The position numbers and the translations under genes were made by a program. Below, in pieces: positions 4,113-64,000 of a DNA stretch of 64,000 nt (its first letter is position 1; every line of letters starts with the position of its first letter). Source of the DNA: Sporichthyaceae bacterium (GTDB taxonomy: Bacteria > Actinomycetota > Actinomycetes > Sporichthyales > Sporichthyaceae). The stretch spans positions 15,130 through 79,129 of the forward strand of contig DATASX010000078.1 of NCBI GenBank assembly GCA_036269075.1, in the 5' to 3' direction. The notes beneath the pieces were generated by a model. That model was not told where the DNA came from. It was given only the letters and a program-made list of their open reading frames with translations, and did not search any database.

Positions 4113-4150
4113 CGCCCCGGCGCTTTGTGAGATGAGGAACTGAGGGGACG

Positions 4151-5191: not shown

Positions 5192-5298
5192 GAAGGGGTC
5201 TGGAACATGCCTACGTCCACGTACCGCCTCTTTCTCCGGGTGAGACGGCTAGCCTGCCCGCGTCGATACCGATCTGTCACCCCTACCGGGAGCCGACG

Positions 5299-6558: not shown

Positions 6559-6587
6559 CCGCGAGCAGCCCCATCTCGCCGGGAGTC

Positions 6588-22865: not shown

Positions 22866-22900
22866 GAATCCAGGGTACCGATTTGTCCGCCGGCGTACAG

Positions 22901-22928
22901 CGTGTCTTGACAGACAGACACCGTGTCT
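22901..22928. promoter_or_regulatory. inverted/direct repeat cluster, candidate TetR operator
   Basis: CGTGTCT (22901-22907), N8, AGACAC (22916-22921), then CGTGTCT (22922-22928). The inner TGTCT-TGAC-AGACA spans 22903-22916. It lies between the divergent TetR (22865) and the flavoprotein (22934). Confidence 0.4.
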
Positions 22929-22933
22929 CCACC

Positions 22934-25762: not shown

Positions 25763-26058
25763 TGACCGCGCTGCGTACGCAGTGGGACCGCACCGGTGCG
25801 ATCGTGGCTGTGATCATCGGTCTGGTCTCGCTGCTGCTGGGCTATCTGGGCGTCAGCGACACCGAGTACATCGTCAAGCAGATGCCGTACATCATCTCCA
25901 ACGGGTTGTTCGGCCTGTTCATGCTCGGCATCGGCACGGCCTTGTGGCTCTCGGCCGACCTGCGCGACGAATGGCGTGAACTGCGTGCGCTGCGCATCGC
26001 CGTCAACGAGCACGGCATCGCGGCCCGGACCGATGACGAGGGCACCGCGAGCCGATGA
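25753..26058 (+). CDS. module A protein 2: conserved 2-TM miniprotein (unknown family)
   Basis: 101 aa. LRTQWDR...GLVSLLLG (TM1), PY..SNGL.G.F.LG (TM2), SADLRDEWRELR. It overlaps the protein 1 stop within ATGGAAGTGATGA. Paralog at 57415. Confidence 0.75.
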   Translation: MEVMTALRTQWDRTGAIVAVIIGLVSLLLGYLGVSDTEYIVKQMPYIISNGLFGLFMLGIGTALWLSADLRDEWRELRALRIAVNEHGIAARTDDEGTASR

Positions 26059-26591
26059 CGACCGCTGTGCGCGAACCGCGCGTGCGCCGCGCCGCAACCC
26101 GAACCGGGGGCCCACGGGTGCCGGCCTACGTGACGGCGTCGAAACGGCGCTCCCGGGGCGAGGTGGTGCTCGGCGATCGCCCGTGGGGTCGCCGCGACCG
26201 GGACATCGCGATCGGCGGGAGCGTGCTCGGCCTGGCCGGGCTCGCGGTGTGCAGTTGGGGCGGCGCCGGTGAGGTCGACCTGGCAACCCAGATGCGTTGG
26301 CTGCTCGGGGGAATCGGCGCCGTCGTGGTCTCCGCCCTCTGCCTGGTCCACTGGCTGTTGGCGGGCTTGCGGACCGTGCGGATCGAGATGGCCCGGGTGT
26401 TCAGCACGATCACGCCGAACCGATCTGTGGTGGGTGCCGCGGCGACCGGCGGCCGGGTCGTGACCGTGGCCGGCATGGTGCGCTTCCACCGACCCGAGTG
26501 CCCGCTCGTGGCGGGCAAGGCGATCCGCGTGCTCGACCCGGCCGACGCTGCCGCCGAGGGGTTGCGTCCCTGCGGAGCGTGCGAGTCATGA
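26055..26591 (+). CDS. module A protein 3: 2-TM membrane protein with C-terminal Ada-like H/C3 metal-binding motif (unknown family)
   Basis: 178 aa. Arg-rich N-terminus, two TM segments, C-terminus VRFHRPECPLVAGKAIRVLDPADAAAEGLRPCGACES. ATGA overlaps on both sides. Paralog at 57725. Confidence 0.75.
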   Translation: MTTAVREPRVRRAATRTGGPRVPAYVTASKRRSRGEVVLGDRPWGRRDRDIAIGGSVLGLAGLAVCSWGGAGEVDLATQMRWLLGGIGAVVVSALCLVHWLLAGLRTVRIEMARVFSTITPNRSVVGAAATGGRVVTVAGMVRFHRPECPLVAGKAIRVLDPADAAAEGLRPCGACES

Positions 26592-28543
26592 ACGCCTACA
26601 TCCCCTTCATCGTCACGGGATTGATCGTCGGGTCGATCTACGGCCTGTCCGCGATGGGCCTGGTACTGACCTACAAGACCTCCGGGTTGTTCAACCTCGG
26701 CCACGGCGCGATCTGCGCTGCCGCCGCATTCGTCTTCTACGAACTGCGCCAGGTGCACGGCGTCCCGTGGGCAGTGGCAGCCGTTGTCACGGTCGTTGTC
26801 TTCGGCGCCGCGACCGGCCTGGTGCTGGAACGCCTCGCCGGTGCGCTGTCCGGGGTGACCACCACGTACAAGATCGTCGCCACCGTCGGTCTGCTGGTTG
26901 CCGTCCGCTCGATCGTGATCCTGATCTGGGGATCCGAGCAGCTCACCTTCGAGCCGTTCCTGCCACAGGGCAAGGCATTCGGGGTCTCCAACGTCTCGGT
27001 CAGCTGGGACAACGTCATCGACATGGCCCTCGGGGTCGCCGCGGCTCTCGGCCTGTCGGTCTTCTTCCGAACCTCTCGGCTGGGCGTCGCGATGCGTGGC
27101 GTCGTCGACAACCCGGCGCTGCTCGACATGGCAGGCACCGCGCCGGCGAAGGTGCGCCGGACCGCATGGATCATCGGCTCGATGTTCGCGGCCGTCTCCG
27201 GTGTGCTGTTCGCCTCGGTGACTTTCCAACTCGACGTGAACGTGCTCTCGCTGCTGGTCGTCCAGGCGTTCGGGGCCGCGGCGATCGGGCGGTTCACCTC
27301 GATCCCGATGGCCTTCGTCGGCGGCCTGACCGTCGGCCTGGTGCAGAAGTTGGTGTCCAAGGAGTTCGCCGGGGAAGTGGTGCTGCGCGGCATCGATCTG
27401 AACGTGCCGTTCATCATCCTGTTCATCGCGATGCTGGTGACTCCCAAGAGTCGCCTGCAGGAGATCGGGCGCAAGGTGAAGGATCGGGCGCCGACTGCCG
27501 GCTCGTTCAGCGTCAGGACCCGCGGCGCCGGCTACGCCGTCCTGCTGGGCGCCGCGCTACTCGTGCCACACCTGGTCGGCACTCGACTCTCGCTCTACAG
27601 CACCGGGCTGACCCAGGTGATCCTCTTCCTCTCCCTCGGCCTGCTGGTGCGGACCTCCGGACAGATTTCCTTGTGCCACGTGGGTTTCGCCGCGGTCGGT
27701 GCCGCCGCCTTCGGACACATGCTGCACGACGGCCTGCCCTGGGGCGTCGCACTGTTGCTCGGCGGCCTGTTCGCTGTCCCGGTCGGGGCGTTCATCGCGA
27801 TCCCCGCGATCCGCCTGTCCGGGCTGTTCCTCGGCCTGGCCACTCTCGGGTTCGGGATCCTGCTCGCGCAGTACGCCTACGGGCAGAGCTGGATGTTCGG
27901 GTTCGGTCGGCTGGACACCCGGCGCCCACACTTCGGCGGCCTGGACTCCGACACGCGTTACTACTACTTCGTGCTCGCCGTCGCGCTGGCCTGCGTCGTC
28001 GCCGTCGTGCTGGTGGAACGCTCCCGGCTCGGCCGACTGCTGCGCGGCCTGGCCGACTCACCGGCGGCGCTGACCTCGCTCGGGACCAACCTGAACATGA
28101 TCCGGGTGATGGTGTTCTGTCTGTCGGCGTTCCTGGCCGGGATCAGCGGGGCGATGTACGCCTCACTGTTCGGCAGCGTCAATCAGGACAGCTTCAACTA
28201 TCTGCAGTCGCTGGTTCTGCTCGCGGTACTGGCCATCTCCGGTCGCGGCACGGTGACCAGCGCGGTGCTCGGCGCCCTGTTGCTCTACGTGCTGCCCGGC
28301 TACATCGACAACCCGGACCACCTCTCGTTGCTGCAGGTCGGCTTCGGCCTGGCCGCGATCCTCGCCGCCGCGCTGTCGCAGGGCCAGTTCGCCGAGGTAG
28401 TCGGACGGGTCGCCGCGGCCGGACGACAACGAACGCTCAGCCCCTGGCGCGACCGCATGGACCCGGTGCACCAGTTGCCCCCCGAACTGCTCGTCAGCTC
28501 CGCGACCCACGAGCCTTTGCTGACCACTGGAGTACATCGATGA
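26588..28543 (+). CDS. fused LivH/LivM-type branched-chain-amino-acid-family ABC permease
   Basis: ATG 26588 (MNAYIPFIVTGLIVGSIYGLSAMGLVLTYKTSGLFNLGHGA is a LivH-like N-terminus). The second half is LivM-like (GQISLCHVGFAAVGAA..., IRLSGLFLGLATLGFG). 651 aa in a single polypeptide. Confidence 0.9.
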   Translation: MNAYIPFIVTGLIVGSIYGLSAMGLVLTYKTSGLFNLGHGAICAAAAFVFYELRQVHGVPWAVAAVVTVVVFGAATGLVLERLAGALSGVTTTYKIVATVGLLVAVRSIVILIWGSEQLTFEPFLPQGKAFGVSNVSVSWDNVIDMALGVAAALGLSVFFRTSRLGVAMRGVVDNPALLDMAGTAPAKVRRTAWIIGSMFAAVSGVLFASVTFQLDVNVLSLLVVQAFGAAAIGRFTSIPMAFVGGLTVGLVQKLVSKEFAGEVVLRGIDLNVPFIILFIAMLVTPKSRLQEIGRKVKDRAPTAGSFSVRTRGAGYAVLLGAALLVPHLVGTRLSLYSTGLTQVILFLSLGLLVRTSGQISLCHVGFAAVGAAAFGHMLHDGLPWGVALLLGGLFAVPVGAFIAIPAIRLSGLFLGLATLGFGILLAQYAYGQSWMFGFGRLDTRRPHFGGLDSDTRYYYFVLAVALACVVAVVLVERSRLGRLLRGLADSPAALTSLGTNLNMIRVMVFCLSAFLAGISGAMYASLFGSVNQDSFNYLQSLVLLAVLAISGRGTVTSAVLGALLLYVLPGYIDNPDHLSLLQVGFGLAAILAAALSQGQFAEVVGRVAAAGRQRTLSPWRDRMDPVHQLPPELLVSSATHEPLLTTGVHR

Positions 28544-30069
28544 GAACCCGTAACGGCACGGCGGTCGCGCTGGTCGCCACGAGCGCATTGCTCCTGACCG
28601 GATGCGGCAACCGCGTCTCGGAGGCCCGCATCGAGGCCGCCAACTCCGCCGTCATGAAGCTCAGTGACCAGCAGCTCAAGGACGCCGGGATCAACCCCGC
28701 CACGGCGCCGCAAACCACCGACAGTGCCGAGACCACAGCCACTGCGACCAACTCGGCCGCCGTGGCCACTGCCGCGGCGGCGCCGGTTCGCGCCGGCGCC
28801 CCGGTCACGGCAGGCGCGGCAGCCGGCGGGGTCCCCGCGGCGGCCGGGACCGGCAGCACGGCCGCCACCGTCGCCGCGGCGGGCGCGCCCAAGGCCCATA
28901 CCGTCGGCGCGGCGCTCACCACCGCGTCGGGTGCCTGCACGAGTTCGCTGCCGCCGGTGTTGCTCGGCCAGACTGGCGTGTTCAGCGGGTTCATCGGCGC
29001 CGTGGGCGCAGGCGCCCGGCCCGGGCTGCAGGTCTGGGCCAAGGACCTCAACTCCCGTGGTGGGCTGGCCTGCCACCCCGTCGAACTGATGCAGCTCGAC
29101 GACCAGTCCGACCCGGCCAAGGTCACCGCGAACGTGCTGGACCTGGTCCAGAACAAGAAGGTCGCGGCGCTGATCGACGCCTACGTCCCGATCACCGTCG
29201 GCCCGTACCGGGAAGCCGCCGCGAAGTTCAAGATGCCCACCATCGGTGGGGACAACATCGACCTGGACTGGAACAAGGATCCCTACCTGTTCCCGGTCGG
29301 GGCCTCGCCACTGGGCACCTACCTGGGCAGCATCAAGTCCGCCGCGGAGTCCGGACACTTCAAGAAGTTCGGCATCCTCTACTGCGTCGAGGCCACGATC
29401 TGCGGCGTCCTCAAGGAGTCGACGACCTCCAAGGGTGGGTTGGCCGACCAGGCCGGTGTGCAGACCGTCTACAGCGCGCCGTTCTCCTTGACGCAGCCGG
29501 ACTTCACCTCCGAGTGCCAGAACATGAAGAACGCCGGCGTGCAGTTCGCGTTCGTGGGCGGCGACGGCTCGGCGGTGTCCCGGGTGGCCCGCGCGTGCAA
29601 CAGCCTCGGCTTCAACCCGACCCTGAGCACGGTGAGCCTGGCTGCCGGATCGGCTGTCCAGAGTGACAAGTTGGTGGCCGGCGACGGGCTCTACCTCGGT
29701 TCGTTCCTCGCCCCGTTCCCGGCCGACGACACCCCTGGCCTGAAGGAGTACCACGCCGCGTTCGAGCGCTACGCGCCGACGCTCACCCTCGACGGCGCCT
29801 CGATGATCGCCTGGTGCTCCGGCAAGTTGCTGGAGGCGGCGGTGAACACTCTCGGAGCCCAGGCGCGCTCCGGCCCGCTGACCACGGCTCTGATCATGAA
29901 GGGCCTGGGCAACATCAACGGCGAGACACTCAACGGTCTCAGCCCGCCGATGACGTTCAAACCGGGTCAGCAGTTCGCGCCGGCCATCAACTGCTACGCC
30001 GTGATCGCCCTCACCGCCCGCGACGTCAAGTTCCGGGCGCCCGAGGGCACGAAGTTCCACTGCCAGTGA
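28540..30069 (+). CDS. lipoprotein substrate-binding protein (Leu/Ile/Val-type fold) with long low-complexity linker
   Basis: ATG 28540 overlaps the permease stop (ATGA). Lipobox LLLTGC. An Ala/Thr/Gly/Pro linker of about 110 aa precedes the SBP domain. Confidence 0.85.
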   Translation: MRTRNGTAVALVATSALLLTGCGNRVSEARIEAANSAVMKLSDQQLKDAGINPATAPQTTDSAETTATATNSAAVATAAAAPVRAGAPVTAGAAAGGVPAAAGTGSTAATVAAAGAPKAHTVGAALTTASGACTSSLPPVLLGQTGVFSGFIGAVGAGARPGLQVWAKDLNSRGGLACHPVELMQLDDQSDPAKVTANVLDLVQNKKVAALIDAYVPITVGPYREAAAKFKMPTIGGDNIDLDWNKDPYLFPVGASPLGTYLGSIKSAAESGHFKKFGILYCVEATICGVLKESTTSKGGLADQAGVQTVYSAPFSLTQPDFTSECQNMKNAGVQFAFVGGDGSAVSRVARACNSLGFNPTLSTVSLAAGSAVQSDKLVAGDGLYLGSFLAPFPADDTPGLKEYHAAFERYAPTLTLDGASMIAWCSGKLLEAAVNTLGAQARSGPLTTALIMKGLGNINGETLNGLSPPMTFKPGQQFAPAINCYAVIALTARDVKFRAPEGTKFHCQ

Positions 30070-30079
30070 CGGGTCGTCA

Positions 30080-30907
30080 GTGATGAGCGCGCAAACGAGA
30101 TCGAGCGACGTGGACGGCTTGGCCGTCGAGAAGCTGACGGTCCGCTTCGGCGGTCTGACGGCGGTCGACGGGCAGACGCTGACCGCTCCGCGCGGCCGGA
30201 TCACCGGGCTCATCGGGCCCAACGGTGCCGGTAAGACCACGACGTTCAATGCCTGCACGGGCGTGGTCCGGCCCAGTGCCGGTCGGGTTTCCCTGTTCGG
30301 TCAGGACATCACCACCTGGTCGCCGGACGCCCGGGCACGCAACGGCATGGGCCGAACCTTCCAACGGATGGAACTGTTCGACACCCTCACCGTGCGGGAG
30401 AACGTCCGGCTCGGCAAGGAGGCCGGTCTGGCGGGCAGCAATCCTTGGCGGGCGTTGCGATCCAGCCGTGCGCAGGCCGCGGCCGTCCGTCGCCTGGCCG
30501 ACGACGCGATGGACATGGTGGGAATCGGCGATGCGGCCAACCGGCGCCCGGCCGATCTGAGCACCGGCGCGCGCCGGTTGGTCGAACTGGCCCGCTGCAT
30601 CGCGGGCGGTTTCACGGTGATGCTGCTCGACGAACCCTCCTCGGGCCTGGACGGGACCGAGACCGAACAGTTCGGCGGGGTGCTGCGTCGCCTGGTGGCC
30701 GAGCGCAACGTGGCGATCCTGATCGTGGAGCACGACATGGAGTTGGTCATGACCACGTGCAACTACATCCACGTCCTGGACTTCGGCAGGCCGATCTTCG
30801 AGGGCACGGCGCGCGAGGTCGCGTGCTCCCCGTTGGTACGCGCCGCCTATCTGGGTACGGAGGCCGACGGCCTGGACGAACTCGCCGGCACCGGGGCGGT
30901 CGGCTGA
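30080..30907 (+). CDS. ABC transporter ATP-binding protein, LivG-like
   Basis: 275 aa. Walker A GPNGAGKTT, signature LSTGARRLVELAR, Walker B MLLDEPSSGL. Confidence 0.9.
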   Translation: MMSAQTRSSDVDGLAVEKLTVRFGGLTAVDGQTLTAPRGRITGLIGPNGAGKTTTFNACTGVVRPSAGRVSLFGQDITTWSPDARARNGMGRTFQRMELFDTLTVRENVRLGKEAGLAGSNPWRALRSSRAQAAAVRRLADDAMDMVGIGDAANRRPADLSTGARRLVELARCIAGGFTVMLLDEPSSGLDGTETEQFGGVLRRLVAERNVAILIVEHDMELVMTTCNYIHVLDFGRPIFEGTAREVACSPLVRAAYLGTEADGLDELAGTGAVG

Positions 30908-31605
30908 TGCTGAGGCTGGACTCGATCCGTGCCGGTTACGCCGGTTCCACCGTGCTGCGCGGCGTCAGTCTGCTGGTGCCCCCGTCCAGCGTGGTCGCGT
31001 TGTTGGGTCCGAACGGGGCCGGCAAGACCACGTTGCTGCGGGTGGCCTCGGGCCTGCTGCGTCCGACCTCCGGCCAGGTCCTGCTCGACGGCCGGGACGT
31101 CAGCCGGTACGCCCCGCACAAGTTGGTCGAGCGCGGGGTCTGCCACGTGCCGGAGGGCCGCGGCGTGTTCCCGTCGCTCTCGGTGCGGGAGAACCTGATC
31201 CTGCATTCCAGACCCGGCACGGAATCCGAGTCGGTGGAGAAAGCGGTGTCGGCGTTCCCGCGGCTGGGGGAGCGGCTTTCCCAACAAGCGGGCACGATGA
31301 GCGGCGGCGAGCAGCAGATGCTCGCGCTGGCGCGGGCGTATGTGCAGAACCCCCGCTTCGTGCTGCTCGACGAGGTCTCGATGGGCCTGGCCCCGAAGAT
31401 CGTCGACGAGATCTTCGACTTCCTTCGGCTGCTGGCTTCGCAGGGCGCCTCCTTGCTGCTCGTCGAGCAGTACGTGACCCGCGCGCTGGAGGCCGCCGAC
31501 TACGTCTACCTGCTCGGCCGGGGAACCGTGACCTTCTCCGGCGAGCCGGGAGAACTCGACGCCGACGCGTTGGCCGAGCAGTACATCGCGGCCGCCCACA
31601 CCTGA
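30907..31605 (+). CDS. ABC transporter ATP-binding protein, LivF-like
   Basis: ATG 30907 overlaps the LivG-like stop. Walker A GPNGAGKTT, VPEGRGVFPSLSVRENL, signature MSGGEQQMLALAR, Walker B VLLDEVSMGL. Confidence 0.9.
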   Translation: MLRLDSIRAGYAGSTVLRGVSLLVPPSSVVALLGPNGAGKTTLLRVASGLLRPTSGQVLLDGRDVSRYAPHKLVERGVCHVPEGRGVFPSLSVRENLILHSRPGTESESVEKAVSAFPRLGERLSQQAGTMSGGEQQMLALARAYVQNPRFVLLDEVSMGLAPKIVDEIFDFLRLLASQGASLLLVEQYVTRALEAADYVYLLGRGTVTFSGEPGELDADALAEQYIAAAHT

Positions 31606-31617
31606 GGAGAAGAAGGC

Positions 31618-32346
31618 ATGCACCAGATGGTGTTCCAGCGGGTCTGTGCGTGGAGCGGAATGGTCTGTGTGACCCTGTTCTTCGCGGCGTTCGGGTTCAT
31701 GCACTTCATCCCGCCGATCACCCCAGGCAGGTCGGCCGAACAGATCGCACACCACTACCAGGAGCACACCAACAGCATCCGCTTCGGCGCCCTGCTGATG
31801 CTGTTCAGCAGCATGTTCTACGCCGCCTTCACCGCAGTGGTCTCCGCTCAGATGCGCCGCATCGCGGGTATCCACCCGGCAGCGATCTACACGCAGCTCG
31901 CGGCCGGCGCGTTCGCCTGCCTGACCTTCCTGGTCCCCGGCCTGATCTTCGAGGTGGCCGCGTTCCGGCCCGACCGCGACCCGTCCCAGACCCTGCTGCT
32001 CAACGACATGGGCTGGATCTTCATGGTCATGCCGTGGATGCCGTTCCTCACGCAGAACTGGACCTTCGCCTACGCCATCCTCTCCGACAACCAGGATCGG
32101 CCGGTCTTCCCGCGCTGGCTCGCGTACTGCAACGTCTGGGCGATCATCATCTTCTCCCCTTCGGTCGCCCTGCCGTTCTTCAAGCACGGAGTCTTCGCCT
32201 GGAGCGGCCTGTTCGTGGTCTGGATCCCGGCCTTCGCGTTCATCGCCCAATTCGGCGTGAACACCGCGATGTTGCTACGTGCGATCGACCGGGAGGAGGC
32301 CGAGGTCCGGTCGACGGGGCCGGAACGCGAACTGGTCCCTGCTTAG
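31618..32346 (+). CDS. integral membrane protein, unknown function
   Basis: 242 aa with about 6 hydrophobic segments. It starts 12 nt after the LivF-like stop, behind GAGGAGAAGAAGG. Confidence 0.6.
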   Translation: MHQMVFQRVCAWSGMVCVTLFFAAFGFMHFIPPITPGRSAEQIAHHYQEHTNSIRFGALLMLFSSMFYAAFTAVVSAQMRRIAGIHPAAIYTQLAAGAFACLTFLVPGLIFEVAAFRPDRDPSQTLLLNDMGWIFMVMPWMPFLTQNWTFAYAILSDNQDRPVFPRWLAYCNVWAIIIFSPSVALPFFKHGVFAWSGLFVVWIPAFAFIAQFGVNTAMLLRAIDREEAEVRSTGPERELVPA

Positions 32347-55872: not shown

Positions 55873-55900
55873 TTGACTCCACATTTCCGGCCTGTAGAGT
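55873..55900 (+). promoter_or_regulatory. candidate housekeeping-sigma promoter of module B
   Basis: -35 TTGACT (55873-55878), 16-nt spacer, -10 TAGAGT (55895-55900). It sits in a locally AT-richer intergenic region about 75 nt upstream of ATG 55976. Confidence 0.4.
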
Positions 55901-55975: not shown

Positions 55976-57424
55976 ATGTCGCGCTCAAGACGTCGGCGAT
56001 CGCCGGTCGCGAAATGGCTCGGTTCCGGGTTGGCCGCGGCCGCGGTGGTCGGGACGGGCACGTTGGTGTGGAGCCCGCCGGCAAGTGCCGATGCCGGCTC
56101 CTTCTACGAAGCGAGTGCGCGCTCCGCGGTGGCCGACGGGTACTTCACGAACTCGACCATTCCCGGTGGCGTGAAGCCCGAGGGTGGTGGCCCGGAGACC
56201 GACGTGGCGCAGTCCTCGCTGAGCAAGGGCGACGCGAACGCCTCGTTCCCGTACTTCGGCGACTATGTGCCGACCGCCCCGGGCGTCGTGTCCGGCCTGT
56301 TCGGCTTCCCGGTACCCCCCTATCCGCTGACCGCGTCGTCGACATTCGGCAGCGAACCGGGCAAGGCGAATTACCCGGGCATCGAGCTCAGCGCGGTGAG
56401 CCGGGCAAATTCGACGGTGGCCGACGGTGTGTTCGGCTCGGCGGGATCCGGCGCGGTGTCTCACTCAGAGGTTGATCAGACTGCCGACAACCAGATCACG
56501 GCCTCGGCCGTCGCGTCCTCGCCGTTGACCAACCTCGGCCCGTTGGTCAGCGTCAAGGGCCTGGAATCGACGGTCTCGGTGCTGGCGGACGCGACTGGTG
56601 CGTTGACCCGGACCTCGAATTTCTCCATCGACGAAATCTCCGTACCGGGTCTGGTGCTGCGCATTCCGGAGCGGACACCGGGATCGGTCCCGCTGCCCTT
56701 CCCGGTCCCCGTGCCAGGGGTGCCGGCTCCGCAGCCGATTCCGTTGCAGCCCTTCCCGATACCCAACGGCGGCACGACGCTGGTCGAGCCCAGGATCGGA
56801 TTCATCAACGGCTATTTCGTGGTGACGCAGCCGTTCGGCGCGGACTCGCGCAAGTACGTGGTACCCGCGGACGCGGTCGTGCAAGCGTTCAAGGCGCAAG
56901 GCGTCGCGCTGAACTACACAGCTGCGGCGCTCACCAAGAACGGCATCACCGGTGGCGTTTTCGCGATCAACTACACCTTCGCCGCTCCTCCGGACAACCC
57001 GTTCTACAAGGGCCCGACGCCGACCACATTCATCCTCGGAGCCACCTCGGCCTCGGTGCAGCGGGCGGCGCAAGCCGGCGCGGTAGTGGCAGCGGGGACA
57101 TCCGGCAATTCGGCCGTCCCGGGCGTGCTGCCCGGCGGGCCGTTGGCGCAGGCACCGGACGTGGCCAACGTCGTTGGGCCGGCGACCGCGCCCGCGGTCG
57201 GCCCGGTGCCCACGACTGTCGGTGGGATTCCTACGGTGAACTTCCAGCCGCAGCATCCCGGGGTCGTGTCACACATCAGATCCACGCTGATGGCGGCGGG
57301 CCTGCCCGCCTTCGCGGCCAGTGATTTCTCCGGCCTCTACCTGGCGCTGGTTGGTCTGGCCGGCCTCGGCCTGGTGGCCGTGACGGTTGTCGTCGCTAAG
57401 GGAGTGTCGGCGCGATGGAACTGA
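55976..57424 (+). CDS. module B protein 1: secreted, C-terminally anchored envelope protein (paralog of 24323..25762)
   Basis: 482 aa. MSRSRRRRSPVAKW... signal ending PPASA|DA. Shared blocks ASFPY.GD, APG..SGLFG, ANYPGI.L, VPG...RIP..TPG.VPLP.PVP, A.PP.NP.Y.G. Pro/Ala stalk and C-terminal TM. Confidence 0.8.
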   Translation: MSRSRRRRSPVAKWLGSGLAAAAVVGTGTLVWSPPASADAGSFYEASARSAVADGYFTNSTIPGGVKPEGGGPETDVAQSSLSKGDANASFPYFGDYVPTAPGVVSGLFGFPVPPYPLTASSTFGSEPGKANYPGIELSAVSRANSTVADGVFGSAGSGAVSHSEVDQTADNQITASAVASSPLTNLGPLVSVKGLESTVSVLADATGALTRTSNFSIDEISVPGLVLRIPERTPGSVPLPFPVPVPGVPAPQPIPLQPFPIPNGGTTLVEPRIGFINGYFVVTQPFGADSRKYVVPADAVVQAFKAQGVALNYTAAALTKNGITGGVFAINYTFAAPPDNPFYKGPTPTTFILGATSASVQRAAQAGAVVAAGTSGNSAVPGVLPGGPLAQAPDVANVVGPATAPAVGPVPTTVGGIPTVNFQPQHPGVVSHIRSTLMAAGLPAFAASDFSGLYLALVGLAGLGLVAVTVVVAKGVSARWN

Positions 57425-57738
57425 TGAACTTGCTCCGCACCCAGTGGGACCGGGCGATGGCCATCCTTTGCGCCATCGGCGGGTTGGTGTCCCTGCTCCT
57501 CGGATGGATCGGCACCAGCGGCACGGCGCACGTCGCGGCTCAACTGCCCTACCTCGTCTCCAACGGGCTGACCGGCATCTTCCTGCTCGGTGTCGCGGCG
57601 GTGCTGTGGATCAGCGCAGACCTGCGGGACGAGTGGCGTGAGCTGCGCCGCGTCGGCACCCTGCTCGACCGCGAACTGAGCGAGCGTCACAACGGTCGCC
57701 TCGCCGAGCAGGCGTCGGGCTCTCATGCCCGCGCTTGA
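57415..57738 (+). CDS. module B protein 2: conserved 2-TM miniprotein
   Basis: 107 aa. LRTQWDRAMAILCAIGGLVSLLLG...PYLVSNGLTGIFLLG...SADLRDEWRELR. It has the same ATGGAAsTGATGA overlap junction as copy A. Confidence 0.8.
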   Translation: MELMNLLRTQWDRAMAILCAIGGLVSLLLGWIGTSGTAHVAAQLPYLVSNGLTGIFLLGVAAVLWISADLRDEWRELRRVGTLLDRELSERHNGRLAEQASGSHARA

Positions 57739-58324
57739 GACGAGGACGGCTGATCTGACACGCACCGCGGACAAGCGCCGCCCGCCCGAGCCCAGTGCCA
57801 CCGGCCCGGTGAACCCGCGGCGGCGTCGGCGTTATCTCCGCGAGCCGCGGCCCTGGCGTAGCTCCGACCTGCGGCGTGCCCTCGCGCTGCTGCTGGTCGG
57901 CGCGGCCGTCTCGGTCTGGGGTTGGTTCGAGGTCAGCGGCAAGGTTCGGTTGCGCGACCAGCAGGGCTGGGCGGCGTTGGCCTACCTCGGCGCGGCGATC
58001 GCGGCATGTGGCGGGGTCTACCTGGTGACCGTCTCGATGCGTGAGGTCCGCCTCGGCCAACGCCAACTGATGTTCGACCTCGCCGATGTCATGGGATGGA
58101 ACGTCTCCGTCATCCAACGCGGCCGGCTCCGGTTGCACGCCGGCGACGAGTCGGGCGCGGCGCTCGCCGAGCACACCGACGCCGGCGTCCTGGTCACCGG
58201 CCCCGGGATGACCTTCGTGCACCGTGCCGAATGCCCGATCACCCGTGGCAAGGCCGTTTCCGGAATCAGCGCAGCGGATGCTGCGGCGCGAAGCCTCGCT
58301 CCGTGTGGGGTGTGCCGGCCGTGA
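57725..58324 (+). CDS. module B protein 3: 2-TM membrane protein with Ada-like H/C3 motif
   Basis: 199 aa. Arg-rich N-terminus, 2 TM segments, C-terminus MTFVHRAECPITRGKAVSGISAADAAARSLAPCGVCRP. Its stop overlaps the permease GTG (GTGA). Confidence 0.8.
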   Translation: MPALETRTADLTRTADKRRPPEPSATGPVNPRRRRRYLREPRPWRSSDLRRALALLLVGAAVSVWGWFEVSGKVRLRDQQGWAALAYLGAAIAACGGVYLVTVSMREVRLGQRQLMFDLADVMGWNVSVIQRGRLRLHAGDESGAALAEHTDAGVLVTGPGMTFVHRAECPITRGKAVSGISAADAAARSLAPCGVCRP

Positions 58325-60273
58325 AGGAATACCTCCCTTATCTGATCTTCGGCGTCGTCACCGGTGCCATCTACGGCATCTGCGCCATGGGTCTGGTGCT
58401 GACGTACAAGACCTCCGGTGTCTTCAACTTCGGGCACGGCGCGGTGTGCGCGCTGTCCGCCTACGCATTCTTCGACCTGCGTCAGCAGCAGGGGATCGCC
58501 TGGCCGGTGGCCGCGATCCTCGTGGTGTTCGTGATGGGTCCGATCGTCGGCCTGTTGATGGAGCGACTGGCCGCCGGGCTGGCCCCGGTGTCCACGGCGT
58601 ACAAGATCGTCGGCACGGTCGGTCTGCTCGTGTTCATCCAGGCGCTGATCGTGCTGCGCTACAGCGGGCAGGGCCGCCGCTTCGACTACTTCCTCCCGCA
58701 GAACCGGGCTTTCTCCGTCCAGGGCGTCAGCGTCACCGTCGATTCGTGCATCACCGTCGGCATCGGTGCCGCCGCTGCCGTCGGGCTGTTCCTGTTCTTC
58801 CGTTACACCCGGCTCGGCACCGCGATCCGCGGCGTGGTCGACGACCCGCAACTGCTCGACATGACGGGTGAATCGCCGACCAAGGTCCGCCGCACCGCGT
58901 GGATCATCGGCTCGATCTTCGCGTCGGCCTCGGGCATTCTCTTCGCCTCCACGCAGCAGCAGGTCGACGTCAATGTGTTGTCGATCCTCATCGTGCAGGC
59001 CTTCGGTGCGGCGACCATCGCCCTGTTCCGCAACCTGCCGATGTGCTTCGTCGGTGGGGTCATCGTCGCTCTCGCGCAAAAGTTGGTCTCGAAGGATCTC
59101 TCGTCCGGGCACGAACAACTGGCCGGCCTGGACCTCACGATCCCCTTCATCGTGTTGTTCGGCGGCCTGCTCGTGATCCCGCGGAAGTACCTGGTGGAGG
59201 TCGGCCGCCAGGTGAAGCCACGTGCGGCCAAGGCAAGTCGGCTCGCCCTGCGCGACCGACGGATTCTCATGGCCGTCATGGTCGGGGTTGCGCTCTCCAT
59301 CCCCGCGTTCTCCGGTACCCACCAGATCGCGTGGAACGTCGCGCTGACCCAGGTCGCGTTGTTCATGTCGCTGCACCTGCTGGTGCGCGTCTCGGGTCAG
59401 ATCTCGTTGGGTCAGATCGGGTTTGCCGCGATCGGCGCCTCGACGTTCGCGCACATGCTCAGCCACGGCCTGCCGTTCCTGCTCGCGCTGCTGATCGCCG
59501 GTCTGGTGTGTGTGCCGGTCTCCCTGGTGATTGCGGTTCCCGCGATCCGGCTGTCGGGTCTCTACCTCGGTCTGGCGACATTGGGCTTCGGCATCGTGCT
59601 GAACCAGTTCTTCTACGCGAAGAAGTACATGTTCGGCTTCGGCAGCGTGGAGACTCAGCGGCCCAGCTTCTGGGACATGGACCGAAGCGACACGCACTAC
59701 TACTACCTGCTGATGGCGATCGCGTTGGCCTCGGTCTGTCTCGTGCTCTGGATCGAGAGGTCCCGGCTGGGTCGCCTGCTCCGCGGGATGGCCGACGCCC
59801 CCGTGGCACTGTCGACGCTCGGGCTCGCGGTCAACGTCTCGCGGACCCTCGTGTTCTGCGTCGCAGGGTTCCTCGCCGGCATCAGCGGCGCACTGTATGC
59901 GTCGATGTTCGGCTCGGTCAGTGCGGAGAGCTACTTCTTCGTGCAATCGCTGATCGTGCTCGCCGTCCTCGCGATCTCCGGGCGCCGCACCTTCGTGTGC
60001 GCCATGGTCGCGCCGGTCCTGCTCTACGTCGTGCCGAACTACATCACCAACCCGAACTTCTTCGAGTGTCTGCAGATGTTCTTCGGCCTTGCCGCGATCG
60101 CTGCCGCGGTCGGCTCGCAGGGCGCCTTCGAGCGCTGGTTTGCAGCGACTGCAGCCCGCTATACATCCCGTCGCGTCGGTCCGGCCTCCGTCCGGGTCGA
60201 GGACTATCTCGAGCAGAAGGCCGGGGGCGCCGTGGCTGCCCTCGACCGCGAGCCGGTTGGAGCTTCCCGATGA
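58321..60273 (+). CDS. fused LivH/LivM-type ABC permease (paralog of 26588..28543)
   Basis: GTG 58321 (VKEYLPYLIFGVVTGAIYGICAMGLVLTYKTSGVFNFGHGA). The second half carries GQISLGQIGFAAIGAS and IRLSGLYLGLATLGFG. Confidence 0.9.
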   Translation: MKEYLPYLIFGVVTGAIYGICAMGLVLTYKTSGVFNFGHGAVCALSAYAFFDLRQQQGIAWPVAAILVVFVMGPIVGLLMERLAAGLAPVSTAYKIVGTVGLLVFIQALIVLRYSGQGRRFDYFLPQNRAFSVQGVSVTVDSCITVGIGAAAAVGLFLFFRYTRLGTAIRGVVDDPQLLDMTGESPTKVRRTAWIIGSIFASASGILFASTQQQVDVNVLSILIVQAFGAATIALFRNLPMCFVGGVIVALAQKLVSKDLSSGHEQLAGLDLTIPFIVLFGGLLVIPRKYLVEVGRQVKPRAAKASRLALRDRRILMAVMVGVALSIPAFSGTHQIAWNVALTQVALFMSLHLLVRVSGQISLGQIGFAAIGASTFAHMLSHGLPFLLALLIAGLVCVPVSLVIAVPAIRLSGLYLGLATLGFGIVLNQFFYAKKYMFGFGSVETQRPSFWDMDRSDTHYYYLLMAIALASVCLVLWIERSRLGRLLRGMADAPVALSTLGLAVNVSRTLVFCVAGFLAGISGALYASMFGSVSAESYFFVQSLIVLAVLAISGRRTFVCAMVAPVLLYVVPNYITNPNFFECLQMFFGLAAIAAAVGSQGAFERWFAATAARYTSRRVGPASVRVEDYLEQKAGGAVAALDREPVGASR

Positions 60274-61850
60274 CCAGCAACCCCCGCACGGGCGCAATGC
60301 CGCGCCGCATCGCTGCGGTCGCAGGCCTGATGGCCCTCGTGATTCCGCTGTCGGCCTGCGGCACCCGGGAGTCGAGCGACCAGATCGCGGCGGCCGATGG
60401 CTCCGCCATTCATCAGGTCGCGGCGGCGGACAGCGGGGCGACGGCGGGTACGAACACCGGCGCTCCGACCGGCGCCACCACGGACACCGGCGCGGTGGCC
60501 GCAGCGCCCGTTGCGGCCACCGGTGGCACGGCCGCCGCGCCCGCTGCCGGCGCGGCCACAACGACCACGCAGGCCGTGAGCGCCAAGGGCCCGACCGCCG
60601 GCGGAACGACTACGGCCGGCGGTACGACCGCCGGTACCAAGGCAAGCAGCGCGAAGAGCAGTGCCGCCGTCTCGACCGGCGGCGCAACCGTCCCGACCGG
60701 GGCGGATGCCCCCTGCACGAAAGCGCTCGGCCCGGTGGTGATCGGGCAGACCTCGCCGTCCTCGGGCATCATCGGCGCCTCGACATTCAACATGCGGGCG
60801 GGCCTCGCGCTGTGGGCTCGGGCCATCAACGCTGCGGGCGGCGTGCAGTGCCACCCGGTGCAGCTGTACCAGATGGACGACGCCGCCGACCCCGCCCGCG
60901 TCACGTCCAACCTCGATGACCTGGTGAACAACAAGCATGCGATCGCGATTGTCGGCGCCGGGGTGCCCACCACCTTCGCCGCGGCGAAGCGGTTCGCCGA
61001 GCAGAACAAGGTGCCCTTCGTGGGCGGGGACATGATCGAGGCCGGCTGGTTCTCCAGCCCGTGGATCTTCCCCCAGGGCGGCGGTCCGCTGGCGGCCTAC
61101 GCCGGTGCAACGAAGGAAGCGGCGGAGAAGGCCGGCACCAAGAAGGTGGGCCTGATCTACTGCGTCGAGGCCGCGATCTGCGGCACCATCAACGAGAACT
61201 TCGAGGCGATGGCCAAGGCCTCGGGCCTCGAGGTGGTGCTGCGCAAGGTCTCCTCGATCACCTCGCCGGACTACACCGCCGAGTGCCAAGCGCTCAAGGC
61301 CGCCGGTGCCCAGGCAGTTTTCGTGGCGCTGGAGGGATCGGGTGACGCCCGCTTCGCCCGCTCGTGCCTCTCGCTGGGTTACGCACCGCCCGCGGCCACC
61401 TCAGCCCTGTCGGTGAGTGCCGAGGCCGCGCTCGACCCGAACTTCCGCAAGCTGGGAGTCTTCCTCGGCACCGGCAACGCGCCCTATCAGGCCGACGACA
61501 CCCCAGGGGGCCGGTTGTTCACGGCGGCCTACGACACGTTCGCGCCGGGCTCGTCCATCGACCAGAACACCATCAGCCAGTGGACCTCGGGCAAGCTGTT
61601 CGAAAAGGCCGTCGCGAACGTCTTCCAGGAGGCGCGCAGCGGCCCGATCACCCGGGAAATGGTGTTGGAGGGTCTCTGGAAGATGAAGAACGAGAAGCTC
61701 AACGGACTCACGCCGGGCGTCACGTTCAACGAGAACGCGCCGCCCAAACAGAACGACTGCTACGCGCTGCTCAACCTGACGCCCACGGGCTACACCGCGC
61801 CCAAGGGCTCGAAGTTCGACTGCTTCGCCGGCCTGCCCAAAGGCTTCTAG
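60270..61850 (+). CDS. lipoprotein substrate-binding protein with long low-complexity linker (paralog of 28540..30069)
   Basis: ATG 60270 overlaps the permease stop (ATGA). Lipobox PLSAC. An Ala/Thr/Gly linker of about 120 aa precedes the SBP domain. Confidence 0.85.
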   Translation: MTSNPRTGAMPRRIAAVAGLMALVIPLSACGTRESSDQIAAADGSAIHQVAAADSGATAGTNTGAPTGATTDTGAVAAAPVAATGGTAAAPAAGAATTTTQAVSAKGPTAGGTTTAGGTTAGTKASSAKSSAAVSTGGATVPTGADAPCTKALGPVVIGQTSPSSGIIGASTFNMRAGLALWARAINAAGGVQCHPVQLYQMDDAADPARVTSNLDDLVNNKHAIAIVGAGVPTTFAAAKRFAEQNKVPFVGGDMIEAGWFSSPWIFPQGGGPLAAYAGATKEAAEKAGTKKVGLIYCVEAAICGTINENFEAMAKASGLEVVLRKVSSITSPDYTAECQALKAAGAQAVFVALEGSGDARFARSCLSLGYAPPAATSALSVSAEAALDPNFRKLGVFLGTGNAPYQADDTPGGRLFTAAYDTFAPGSSIDQNTISQWTSGKLFEKAVANVFQEARSGPITREMVLEGLWKMKNEKLNGLTPGVTFNENAPPKQNDCYALLNLTPTGYTAPKGSKFDCFAGLPKGF

Positions 61851-62531
61851 GTGTCAGCGGCACCGGTGGAAACCCCCACGCCCCGTCAGATAAGACGGCC
61901 GTCGGCGGTCATCCGGGATCTGTTGCTCAACAGCGCGCGACAGTTGTTCGCGGCCAAGGGCTACGCCGGTGCCAGCACACGGCAGATCGCGGAAGAGGCC
62001 GGGGTGCGGGAAGCACTGATCTTCCGGCACTTCGGCAACAAAGCAGGCCTGTTCCGGGCTGCTGTGATCGACCCGTTCCGCGCCATCATCGAAGGTTTCG
62101 TGGACGACTGGGAGGCCGGCCACGAGTCCAACACCATGAGCACCCATGAGATCACCGGCGCCTGGATCACCTCGCTGCACGCGCTGATGCGGCAGCACCG
62201 TGAGTTGGTCATCGCACTGATCACGGCGAACGACTTCGACGAGGAGACCGAGCCCGGCACCCTGCCGATCACCGACGCCTTCGCCGGGCCGATCCGGCGG
62301 CTGGAGAAATTCACCCGTCGGGAGATGGCCGGCCGCGGGTTGGCCACCGATCCCGTCATCGGGGTGCGTGCCACCTTCGGGATGGTGCTGGCCATGGCTG
62401 TGCTCGACGACTGGTTCTTCGCCGGGGTGGCGCGACGCCCCGGCACCGAGGCGGTGACCCGGGAGATGACCGACATGATCGTCTTCGGCATCGCGGGGAA
62501 GACAGTCGCTCACTCCGGAGGGCGGGGTTGA
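61851..62531 (+). CDS. TetR-family transcriptional regulator embedded in the module B operon
   Basis: GTG 61851 lies immediately after the SBP stop. LLNSARQLFAAKGYAGASTRQIAEEAGVREALIFRHFGNKAGLF. Confidence 0.85.
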   Translation: MSAAPVETPTPRQIRRPSAVIRDLLLNSARQLFAAKGYAGASTRQIAEEAGVREALIFRHFGNKAGLFRAAVIDPFRAIIEGFVDDWEAGHESNTMSTHEITGAWITSLHALMRQHRELVIALITANDFDEETEPGTLPITDAFAGPIRRLEKFTRREMAGRGLATDPVIGVRATFGMVLAMAVLDDWFFAGVARRPGTEAVTREMTDMIVFGIAGKTVAHSGGRG

Positions 62532-63232
62532 TGTTCGAACTCAAGGGCGTCCACGCGGGCTACGCGGGCACGACCGTACTGCGCGGCGTCGACCTGGTGG
62601 TGCCCGACGGTGCGGTCGTCGCCCTGCTCGGCGCCAACGGTGCGGGCAAGACCACCCTGCTGCGCTGTGCCTCCGGGCTCATTCACGCCACCGAGGGCTC
62701 CATGAGCCTCGACGGCGAGGACGTCACCCGCAAGGCCCCGCACCAGTTGGTGAAGCGTGGCATCTGCCACGTGCCCGAGGGCCGCGGTATTTTCCCCAGC
62801 CTGACGGTGCGGGACAACTTGGTGCTGCAATCCCCGCGGGGCAAGGAAAACGAATCGATCGAGAAGGCCTGCTCGGCGTTCAAACGCCTGGGCGAGCGAC
62901 TGAATCAGCCCTGCGGCACCATGTCCGGCGGCGAGCAGCAGATGGTCGCCCTGGCCCGTACCTATGTGCAGAACCCCAAGGTCGCCCTGCTCGACGAGGT
63001 CTCCATGGGCCTGGCTCCGAAGATCGTTGACGAGATCTTCGAGTTCCTCGGCCTTCTGCGCGACCAGGGATCCAGCCTGTTGCTGGTCGAGCAGTACGTG
63101 ACGCGCGCGCTGGACGTCGCCGACTACGTGTACCTGCTCAACAAGGGTGAGGTCGTTTTCGTGGGCCAGCCCAGTGAGTTGGACGAGGCTGACGTCTTCA
63201 ACCAGTACGTGGGCGCCGACATCGGCCACTGA
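62531..63232 (+). CDS. ABC transporter ATP-binding protein, LivF-like (paralog of 30907..31605)
   Basis: The ATG overlaps the TetR stop by 1 nt (TGATG). Walker A GANGAGKTT, VPEGRGIFPSLTVRDNL, MSGGEQQMVALAR, ALLDEVSMGL. Confidence 0.9.
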   Translation: MFELKGVHAGYAGTTVLRGVDLVVPDGAVVALLGANGAGKTTLLRCASGLIHATEGSMSLDGEDVTRKAPHQLVKRGICHVPEGRGIFPSLTVRDNLVLQSPRGKENESIEKACSAFKRLGERLNQPCGTMSGGEQQMVALARTYVQNPKVALLDEVSMGLAPKIVDEIFEFLGLLRDQGSSLLLVEQYVTRALDVADYVYLLNKGEVVFVGQPSELDEADVFNQYVGADIGH

Positions 63233-63243
63233 CGAGCGACACG

Positions 63244-64000
63244 TCAGCTCTTCGCCGTGCTCGAGTCCCCTCGCGTGGTCTTGTAGGCGTCCGCGGTCTC
63301 GACGCTCTCCCAGAGCCGGTGCTCCTCGAGGGCGTGGTTGCCCTTGCCCTTGCGATCCTCACGGGCGAAGACCTTCAGCATCGTCTTCGCGGCGTTCTGG
63401 CCGGGCATGCCGCTGATCCCGGCGACCGGGTGAGTGCCGGACCCGGTGAGGAACAGCCCTGGGATTGGCGTCGAGTAACCGGCGAAGCCGACGGCAGGCT
63501 TGTTCGGTCCGAACCGGGTGATCAGCGGGTCGGTGTGGTAGACCGACCCGTCCATGGCGAAGAAGCGCTCCTCGATGTCCGGCAGCATCCGGACGCGACT
63601 GTAGATGTTCAGTTCTTCGAGGCCCTCGTAGTAGTGGTCGCTCTGGCTGATGATCGTCTCGGCGGCCTGCTTCTTCGCAGCTTCCCACCCCATGTGCGGG
63701 TCGTTGGGGGTCAGCCCGGACCAGAACCAGAAGACATCGCCGCCGGGCGGGGCGAAGTGCGAGTTCGACGCCAGTGCGGTCGAGATCTGCGCGAGGCCGG
63801 GAATGTGCTGCGGCATCTCGCCGCGCTTGCAGGCGATCTGCGCTGCCTTCACCTGCTCGTAATTGTGGTAGCCATTCGCCGGCAGGCGCGGGTCGAGATT
63901 GTCCTTGCGCTTGGCCTTGATCTTGTCCATCCGGATCTGACCCTTGGTCAGCACGTCGAGTTTCATGTCGGCGAAGCCGCGCGATCGGGTCGGGATGTTC
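63244..64000 (-). CDS. phytoene-desaturase-family flavoprotein, C-terminal part (gene continues past right edge)
   Basis: Paralog of 17223..18833 (VYHTDPLITRFGPNKPAVGFAGYSTPIPGLFLTGSGTHPVAGI versus VYHVDPLITRFGPMRPAPGFGKYRTPVPGLYLSGAGTHPTGGV). The reading frame stays open upstream of Met 63966 to the window end. Confidence 0.8.
   Translation of the reverse strand, partial: NIPTRSRGFADMKLDVLTKGQIRMDKIKAKRKDNLDPRLPANGYHNYEQVKAAQIACKRGEMPQHIPGLAQISTALASNSHFAPPGGDVFWFWSGLTPNDPHMGWEAAKKQAAETIISQSDHYYEGLEELNIYSRVRMLPDIEERFFAMDGSVYHTDPLITRFGPNKPAVGFAGYSTPIPGLFLTGSGTHPVAGISGMPGQNAAKTMLKVFAREDRKGKGNHALEEHRLWESVETADAYKTTRGDSSTAKS

Follow-up and report, generated by a model that had tools for sequence, protein, structure and literature searches.

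The 64,000-nucleotide stretch of Sporichthyaceae DNA that we analysed (contig DATASX010000078.1, positions 15,130 to 79,129 of the forward strand, hereafter the window) contains two copies of a gene cassette in which three unannotated proteins, here called P1, P2 and P3, are encoded in front of the permease gene of an ATP-binding cassette (ABC) importer. The genes of the second copy, P1b, P2b and P3b, are real and under selection, and this copy is an anciently diverged paralogue of the first. The cassette defines a distinct subfamily of the HAAT-type (LivHMGF-like) binding-protein-dependent ABC importers and, judging from the genomic evidence, it is probable (we would say about 60%) that P1, P2 and P3 are dedicated accessory subunits of these importers. 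The transporter core is known; what is new is a HAAT-type importer with three unannotated, apparently obligatory extra proteins. A full-text literature search found no paper describing the trio or the cassette.

The window is high-GC DNA (66–73% GC), and the genes of its two cassettes are the following (aa, amino acids).

55976-57424, + strand: P1b, 482 aa, with a predicted signal peptide, all-beta ectodomain, disordered linker and C-terminal membrane helix.
57415-57738, + strand: P2b, 107 aa, a predicted two-helix membrane hairpin.
57725-58324, + strand: P3b, 199 aa, with a basic N-terminus, a two-helix hairpin and a C-terminal domain that contains H166, C170, C194 and C197.
58321-60273, + strand: fused LivH-LivM-type permease of copy b, 650 aa, about 15 hydrophobic helices, BPD_transp_2 twice.
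60270-61850, + strand: lipoprotein substrate-binding protein of copy b (SBPb), Peripla_BP_6, with a tether of about 120 aa.
61851-62531, + strand: TetR-family regulator inserted in copy b, an open reading frame of the window whose TetR_N domain is seen in the syntenic orthologues L081 and L082.
62528-63232, + strand: LivF/UrtE-like ABC ATPase, the sole ATPase gene of the copy-b cassette.
24323-25762, + strand: P1a, paralogue of P1b, matched by the P1 hidden Markov model (HMM) with E 1e-115; its start, the TTG at 24323, is uncertain.
25753-26058, + strand: P2a, paralogue of P2b.
26055-26591, + strand: P3a, paralogue of P3b.
26588-28543, + strand: fused LivH-LivM-type permease of copy a (PERMa).
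28540-30069, + strand: long-tether lipoprotein binding protein of copy a (SBPa).
30080-30907, + strand: LivG-type ATPase of copy a (Pfam ABC_tran and BCA_ABC_TP_C; NCBIfam LivG, E 1.5e-57).
30904-31605, + strand: LivF-type ATPase of copy a, 70% identical to the copy-b ATPase.

Copy a lies 31.6 kb upstream of copy b. The first-pass annotation, made from the sequence of the window, had described a second trio and transporter in the same order, with proteins of 482, 107 and 199 aa; the open reading frames are as it stated, and every block of P1 and P2 sequence that it quoted is found in the alignment of the two copies. The unusual junction between P1 and P2 is also exactly as quoted: the P1 stop and the P2 start overlap by 10 nt in both copies (ATGGAAGTGATGA in copy a, ATGGAACTGATGA in copy b), with the consensus ATGGAA[G/C]TGATGA. 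The GTG start of the copy-b permease gene overlaps the TGA stop of P3b, and the cassettes of the window overlap at all the junctions examined.

The amino-acid identity between the two copies is 38% for P1, 58% for P2, 36% for P3, 54% for the permease and 41% for the binding protein, and the matches between copies are far beyond chance (tblastn E values of 4e-58 for P1, 1e-31 for P2 and 7e-12 for P3). The copies are old paralogues, in line with the first-pass annotation, which took the duplication not to be recent; their synonymous divergence dS is about 1. The first-pass annotation had suggested comparing the a and b members of each pair by dN/dS, the ratio of nonsynonymous to synonymous divergence. 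Between the window copies this ratio is saturated and uninformative (YN00 fails), so that selection was measured on orthologues instead, using two syntenic contigs that are 98% (L081) and 83% (L082) identical to the window. The NG86 dN/dS values of the window against L082 are 0.19 for P1, 0.14 for P2 and 0.33 for P3, compared to 0.12 for the permease, 0.21 for the binding protein, 0.16 for TetR and 0.09 for the ATPase. The trio (0.14–0.33) is therefore about as constrained as the transporter (0.09–0.21), which agrees with the purifying selection that had been claimed. The GC content at third codon positions (GC3) is 0.82–0.86 in the claimed frames.

Frame disruptions in orthologues are found only in long-read metagenome-assembled genomes (MAGs) with evident indel errors. 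The frameshifts inside cassette genes of five loci from the MFD series of long-read MAGs (L001, L012, L015, L077 and L080) look like assembly indel errors, not pseudogenes. In L001 (10313-11020) the C-terminus of P3 is garbled and reads through into the permease frame; we considered a P3-permease fusion and rejected it as an indel artefact of this long-read MAG.

The linkage of the trio to the transporter was studied by scanning one genome per species with a P2 profile, which gave 161 sites, of which 80 loci from about 48 genomes were retrieved and analysed. The loci were chosen by P2 alone; gene order was determined by tblastn with the window proteins, and P1 was later located with its HMM. 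The loci come from Sporichthyaceae (up to six retrieved loci per genome), six Streptomyces species, Actinophytocola, Haloechinothrix, Frankiales, Pseudonocardiaceae and Acidimicrobiia and, outside Actinomycetota, from one Chloroflexota MAG, two Dormibacterota MAGs and one MAG labelled Burkholderiales. The latter (L064, CAZCVW010000140.1, binned as 'uncultured Burkholderiales') carries P2, P3, the permease and both ATPase genes, and its proteins are actinobacterial-like (45–65% identity); the label probably reflects a mistake in binning and not a genuine presence in proteobacteria. Cultivable hosts of the cassette include Sporichthya polymorpha, Streptomyces jeddahensis and Haloechinothrix halophila. 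P2 is absent from the plasmid records that were searched.

P2, P3 and the fused permease are encoded in this order on one strand in about 75 of the 80 loci, the permease directly after P3, across Actinomycetota, Chloroflexota and Dormibacterota. The trio thus does not occur apart from ABC transporters, save for one orphan P2-P3 pair (in L018). LivG and LivF were both found in 68 of the 80 loci, usually directly 3' of the permease gene. P1 and P2 overlap, stop on start, in 48 of 54 loci, and the start codon of the permease gene overlaps the P3 stop (ATGA, GTGA or TTGA) in 53 of 61: P2 and P3 are translationally coupled to the permease. The first-pass annotation had spoken of a five-gene unit made of the trio, the permease and the binding protein. 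These five members stand, while the unit is larger and includes the ATPase genes (LivG and LivF in copy a); that it is a real functional unit is supported both by selection and by the linkage to the ABC transporter.

Nine loci at first seemed to carry a binding-protein gene in the place of P1. A cassette variant lacking P1 was rejected, because the HMM finds P1 after LivF (in L011, L017, L032, L035, L044, L050, L057, L058, L062, L070 and L078) and the few remaining contigs end before that position. Wherever the contig is long enough to tell, the cassette contains P1, placed in front of P2 or else downstream of LivF, which gives two layouts: [SBP]-P1-P2-P3-permease-LivG-LivF-[SBP] and SBP-P2-P3-permease-LivG-LivF-P1, where SBP is the substrate-binding protein. 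The conserved core is thus P2-P3-permease; P1 may begin or end the operon, the gene of the binding protein has no constant place, and the ATPase genes are part of the unit. Rosetta-stone fusions were also looked for and rejected, the long P1 homologues merely having longer linkers.

In L018, a cassette with a LivF-type ATPase gene between P1 and the permease (967-6584) precedes by a few kb an isolated P2-P3 pair to which we come back below, and another cassette (L028) lies about 15 kb upstream on the same contig, so that cassettes are clustered in tandem in that genome, as they are in the window.

The families are large. A word-index search gives about 50 relatives of P1b, all from Sporichthyaceae or metagenomes, the best named ones being hypothetical proteins of Sporichthya polymorpha and S. 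brevicatena, and a profile word-index search for a deeper P1 alignment gave just 3 new proteins. Searching 1.84 billion cluster representatives with a P1 profile gives 1212 matches (clusters at 50% identity), 964 of them at E<=1e-10 and nearly all of 390–500 aa. For P2, 308 relatives were found.

The first-pass annotation had proposed to check whether trio and transporter co-evolve, which we did for 42 cassettes by computing a matrix of pairwise distances for each of P1, P2, P3 and the permease and comparing these with Mantel tests. All the matrices are positively correlated (p<=0.001), with mirror-tree r values of 0.77–0.83 within the trio, and the nearest neighbours of P1, P2, P3 and the permease agree wherever a close relative exists. 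Paralogous cassettes of one genome each have their own trio, with within-genome identities of 35–48% for P1 and 26–39% for P3 among the cassettes amenable to this analysis. That every paralogous cassette keeps a strongly diverged trio to itself argues for a cognate, cassette-specific partnership and not for a shared helper. The cassettes evolve as units, and the cassette is ancient and present in several phyla.

Regarding the transporter itself, the copy-b permease matches PF02653 (BPD_transp_2) twice (E 1.5e-52) and the NCBIfam models of LivH/UrtB on residues 5–283 and of LivM/UrtC on residues 286–587. None of the NCBIfam equivalog cut-offs of the Liv and Urt families is reached (all the scores are far lower, for instance 95 against 366 for LivM and 66 against 250 for UrtB). 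SBPb matches PF13458 (Peripla_BP_6, E 5.8e-43, residues 155–490), and its nearest solved relatives are amino-acid/amide and branched-chain-amino-acid-type binding proteins of the HAAT family. Like the HAAT importers (TC 3.A.1.4: LivJ/K-HMGF, BraCDEFG, UrtABCDE), the cassette combines LivH/UrtB and LivM/UrtC permease halves, a Peripla_BP_6 binding protein and ATPases of LivG and LivF type (both in copy a, a LivF-like one alone in copy b), and the catabolic genes that surround it fit uptake. To our knowledge, classical HAAT systems contain five canonical parts only. Unlike them, the cassette has its permease halves fused, its binding protein is a lipoprotein held on a low-complexity, disordered tether (83–147 aa from the lipobox cysteine to the binding domain, across taxa), and it encodes three extra membrane proteins, which are universal in it as far as the contigs allow them to be scored.

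P2 has two hydrophobic helices and, from hydropathy and charge, basic flanks at both ends. Its invariant residues are Q10, W11, D12 and R13 (QWDR) before helix 1, G30, G33, Q43, P45 and S49 around a short outer loop (loop motif G-x-S...Q-x-PY), and W65, A68, D69, R71, D72, W74 and R75 after helix 2; the two motifs predicted to be cytoplasmic, QWDR and W-x2-ADLRDEWRE, are invariant or nearly so. P2 has no match in Pfam or NCBIfam at the curated cut-offs, the weak hits to DUF6518 being limited to 7 of 28 members (best E 2.8e-4). Its profile retrieves from the PDB only the BRIL (cytochrome b562) fusion partners of GPCR structures, which we discarded as noise from a chance 'ADLEDNWETL'-like stretch; the ADLRDEWRELR motif is expected to give such BRIL false positives in searches with this family.

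At its N-terminus P3 has a basic region that contains a conserved Trp. The two-helix hairpin follows, then a second basic segment, and a variable linker leads to a C-terminal domain of about 40 aa. The residues H166, C170, C194 and C197 of this domain are invariant and form the pattern H-x3-C-x23-C-x2-C, which ends in 'PCxxCxP'; the His-Cys3 motif is present in 61 of 68 candidate P3 open reading frames. P2 and P3 are related to one another: their profiles align in hhalign with a probability of 96.5% (E 7.8e-10), and the P3 HMM also matches nearly every P2 open reading frame. From these sequence comparisons, P2 and P3 are identified as paralogues with a homologous two-helix hairpin, both ends of which are probably cytoplasmic according to hydropathy and charge pattern.

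Nothing in Pfam or NCBIfam matches P3 at the curated cut-offs, including any DNA-binding or kinase domain. DUF6233 is found on residues 159–199 of P3b below its cut-off (E 1.3e-4, 22.4 bits against 27.6) and, at E<=0.01, in 4 of 30 P3 members. In hhalign, the four ligand-type residues align in register with those of E. coli Ada, a weak match (probability 31%, E 5e-4). The zinc site of Ada is made of Cys38, Cys42, Cys69 and Cys72 (spacing C-x3-C-x26-C-x2-C), while the first ligand-type residue of P3 is a His; unlike the Ada zinc site or DUF6233, the P3 domain is joined to a membrane hairpin in one protein. The Pfam scan of P3 reported no match to PF02805 (Ada_Zn_binding). We also note a weak match (E 0.037) of the P3 profile to PDB 7qhm_J, a 112-aa 'hypothetical membrane protein' subunit of the bcc-aa3 supercomplex of Corynebacterium glutamicum, which is also among the non-significant fold matches of the P3 model (as 7qhm_J and 7q21_K). 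This likeness could be due to chance, or hairpins could be a common accessory-subunit module in actinobacteria.

The AlphaFold2 model of P1b has a mean predicted local distance difference test (pLDDT) score of 73.9, and residues 41–365 of its core are mostly above 85. After the signal peptide, this core is almost wholly made of long antiparallel strands, which gives an ectodomain of about 330 aa; it is followed by a disordered, Pro/Gly/Ala-rich linker (residues 370–439) and by a C-terminal membrane helix (residues 452–478). The linker is up to about 190 aa long in homologues. After the start Met, the residues that are invariant or nearly so in 27 diverse members are only Pro, Gly, Ala, Tyr and Val, among them Y455, G476 and V477 in or after the membrane helix; conserved residues of this non-catalytic type give no sign of an enzyme. 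Export by the twin-arginine (Tat) pathway was rejected, since the pattern is inconsistent (15 of 27 members even with a loose definition).

No Pfam or NCBIfam family is reached at the curated cut-offs by the window copies of P1, by the 27 diverse members or by 10 distant representatives. The top Foldseek matches of the model in the PDB are the outer-membrane beta-barrels OmpF, OpcA and Pla (E about 4e-4). We rejected this identity, because the TM-scores are 0.07–0.17 and the root-mean-square deviations 17–27 Å, so that there is no real superposition; the matches come from the long, up-and-down antiparallel strands, and P1, unlike these barrels, is tethered to the cytoplasmic membrane by a helix. 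The P1 profile finds nothing among PDB sequences, and Foldseek finds no real match of the model in the viral set. On the basis of the model, the fold of P1 appears to be new, or to have no match in the libraries searched.

Two known systems serve as functional analogies only. Like LptC of LptB2FGC, P1 has one membrane helix and an all-beta domain outside the membrane, and is encoded with an ABC transporter; in the Lpt system, the helix of LptC inserts between transporter helices and tunes the ATPase activity. Unlike that of LptC, the anchor of P1 is C-terminal and follows a long disordered linker, and neither the PDB profile search nor Foldseek gave a sequence or fold match between the two. 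The cassette also differs from the Lpt exporter in that it has a binding protein and is importer-like, and its hosts are mostly thought to be single-membrane bacteria. With DctQ of TRAP and TctB of TTT transporters the trio shares the constant presence, beside the gene of a large uptake permease that works with a binding protein, of genes for small, poorly conserved helical membrane proteins. These transporters are of another class, homology was not detected, P2 is far more conserved than DctQ or TctB, and P3 has a metal-type domain.

The surroundings of the cassettes bear on what is transported. In the window, copy a has an amine oxidase upstream and is followed by LivG, LivF, a membrane protein of no recognised family, an alpha/beta hydrolase and a PucR-type regulator; copy b has a fumarylacetoacetase upstream, TetR and the LivF-like ATPase downstream, and then a convergent amine oxidase. 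The other features concerned are the following.

22883-24295, + strand: flavin amine oxidase, upstream of copy a.
63244-64000, - strand: flavin amine oxidase, convergent, downstream of copy b.
17232-17849, - strand: amine-oxidase-like stretch, 42% identical to the copy-b amine oxidase.
55873-55900, + strand: promoter-like site upstream of P1b (TTGACT, 16-nt spacer, TAGAGT), a consensus match only.

The amine oxidase was rejected as a fixed partner of the cassette, since its occurrence is confined to close relatives (3 and 2 loci out of 80); the amine oxidases give a hint of what these two cassettes import, not of what the trio does. For 47 diverse cassettes, the closest genes outside the cassette have for the most part catabolic or regulatory products: TetR accounts for 11 of 134, IclR is also present, and the catabolic genes encode acyl-CoA, aldehyde and short-chain dehydrogenases, luciferase-like monooxygenases, enoyl-CoA hydratases, GMC oxidoreductases and P450s. 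Such varied neighbours fit the import of diverse organic substrates for catabolism, with no single fixed pathway; amine oxidases, fumarylacetoacetase and acyl-CoA enzymes in the flanks point to amines, amides, and aromatic and aliphatic acids as candidate ligands. The promoter-like site, of which there is 1 upstream of P1b against a mean of 0.0 in shuffled versions of the region, fits P1b being the first gene of its operon. The Rfam search of the whole window found no element, and a riboswitch or leader upstream was rejected on that account.

The membrane protein that follows LivF of copy a (31618-32346, + strand) is polytopic, has 242 aa and no Pfam or NCBIfam family; homologues with 24–46% identity accompany cassettes at 11 of the 80 loci, L005 and L070 having two each. 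The window also contains a third, orphan HAAT-type lipoprotein binding protein (2547-4112, + strand), of 521 aa, with a low-complexity tether of about 130 aa and 30–33% identity to SBPa and SBPb; no permease or trio gene adjoins it, and it lies among enoyl-CoA hydratase-like, acyl-CoA-synthetase-like and luciferase-like genes.

The idea that the trio consists of accessory subunits is based on selection, linkage, overlapping junctions, cognate sets, anatomy and importer-type neighbours taken together. In the arrangement that we propose, five extra helices, those of the P2 and P3 hairpins and the conserved C-terminal one of P1, would lie against the permease within the membrane. The cytoplasmic parts, namely the invariant QWDR and ADLRDEWRE motifs of P2 and the P3 domain with the His-Cys3 residues, would be turned towards the ATPases and could modulate coupling or activity. 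The ectodomain of P1, on a flexible tether whose length is similar to that of the binding protein, would act outside the membrane, where it would probably serve in docking or hand-over with the tethered binding protein or its ligand in the cell wall. Each cassette would have substrates of its own, as the divergence of the binding proteins and the variety of catabolic genes nearby suggest.

A more ambitious version is conceivable, and we put it forward tentatively, with less than even confidence: the cassettes would encode a new kind of ABC-importer holo-complex, present in Actinomycetota, Chloroflexota and Dormibacterota, which would need, in addition to permease, ATPases and binding protein, two paralogous hairpins, one of them with a cytoplasmic zinc domain, and a tethered ectodomain of new all-beta fold. 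The two tethers would make it a device for capture and hand-over across the wall, and the duplicated versions (up to six among the loci retrieved from one Sporichthyaceae genome) would each be tuned to another substrate.

Several observations weigh against the accessory-subunit proposal. The mirror-tree correlations of the trio with the permease are just moderate (r 0.38–0.62), and the variable position of P1 in the operon fits a partnership looser than that of P2 and P3. An orphan P2-P3 pair exists in L018 (10001-10898), next to unrelated genes and with no permease. In L023 (3-1511, - strand), the gene upstream of a fused LivH-LivM permease 47% identical to PERMa codes for an acyl-CoA dehydrogenase and not for P2-P3, the remainder of this operon lying outside the retrieved locus; not all fused HAAT permeases therefore require the hairpins. 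Copy b has a LivF-like ATPase only, with no LivG nearby, and so does its 98% identical orthologue L081; the only LivG-type gene of the window belongs to copy a, while LivG and LivF are encoded divergently upstream in the more distant orthologues L001, L003 and L006. Copy b may borrow LivG from elsewhere or use a LivF homodimer. Last, the absence of an informative structural match for the P1 ectodomain makes the role proposed for it guesswork, and the model of P3, computed from two sequences, is of low confidence and retrieves only generic helical hairpins in the fold search.

Among the other explanations, one is that the trio is a regulatory or sensing module outside transport, in which P2 and P3 would signal or govern the state that the transporter is in, with the cytoplasmic His-Cys3 domain as the switch, by trans-inhibition, redox or metal sensing, or sequestration of a regulator. 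The strikingly invariant cytoplasmic motifs of P2 and the invariant metal-type ligands of P3 fit this idea, and so does, weakly, the alignment of P3 with Ada, in which a Cys of the zinc site is chemically reactive. TetR, IclR or PucR regulators usually adjoin the cassettes; however, they belong to different families, are often absent and give no fixed partner, and P3 has no DNA-binding or kinase domain. Regulation by the trio also leaves P1 and its extracellular tether unexplained, and it overlaps the accessory-subunit proposal rather than excluding it. We regard it as unlikely.

Similarly unlikely is a separate envelope module that is merely co-transcribed with the transporter, where P1 would be a surface protein (ligand-scavenging, wall-associated or adhesive) that P2 and P3 anchor or export. 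In favour of it, P1 has its own signal peptide, tether and membrane anchor and is encoded last in some operons, co-variation is tighter inside the trio than between trio and permease, and an orphan P2-P3 pair exists in L018. On the other hand, P2-P3 are almost never found apart from the permease gene in three phyla, the codons overlap in most loci, as seen above, and every paralogous transporter has its own trio, which would be surprising for a generic envelope function.

It is less likely still that the three proteins are assembly factors, that is, chaperones dedicated to the insertion or stability of the large fused permease (about 15 helices) that stay outside the working complex. Translational coupling directly upstream of the permease gene speaks for this, and so does the presence of small hairpin membrane proteins, but the related fused permease of L023 does without them upstream, and neither cognate-specific divergence, nor invariant charged cytoplasmic motifs, nor a tethered ectodomain of about 330 aa is expected of a simple insertion helper. 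Finally, although GC-rich DNA gives many long spurious open reading frames, dozens of which overlap true genes in the window, the idea that the trio genes are chance frames and that the likeness of the copies comes from duplicated non-coding or mis-framed sequence is refuted by GC3, by dN/dS values well under 1, by hundreds to more than 1000 homologues that keep the invariant residues across phyla, and by the confident core of the P1 model.

In the textbook view, a binding-protein-dependent ABC importer needs only two membrane domains, two ATPases and a binding protein. If P1, P2 and P3 are indeed accessory subunits, additional obligatory components, known from the Lpt, Mla and Mce systems, can also belong to importers of this class. 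Three large unannotated families gain a context, P1 alone representing more than 1000 clusters at 50% identity and probably a new fold. The cassette is also an entry point to the mechanism of HAAT transporters, as no relative of the HAAT permease was found among PDB sequences. The presence of many paralogous cassettes beside catabolic genes suggests a modular uptake platform, which may account for the ability of Sporichthyaceae and related soil bacteria to scavenge a range of organic substrates.

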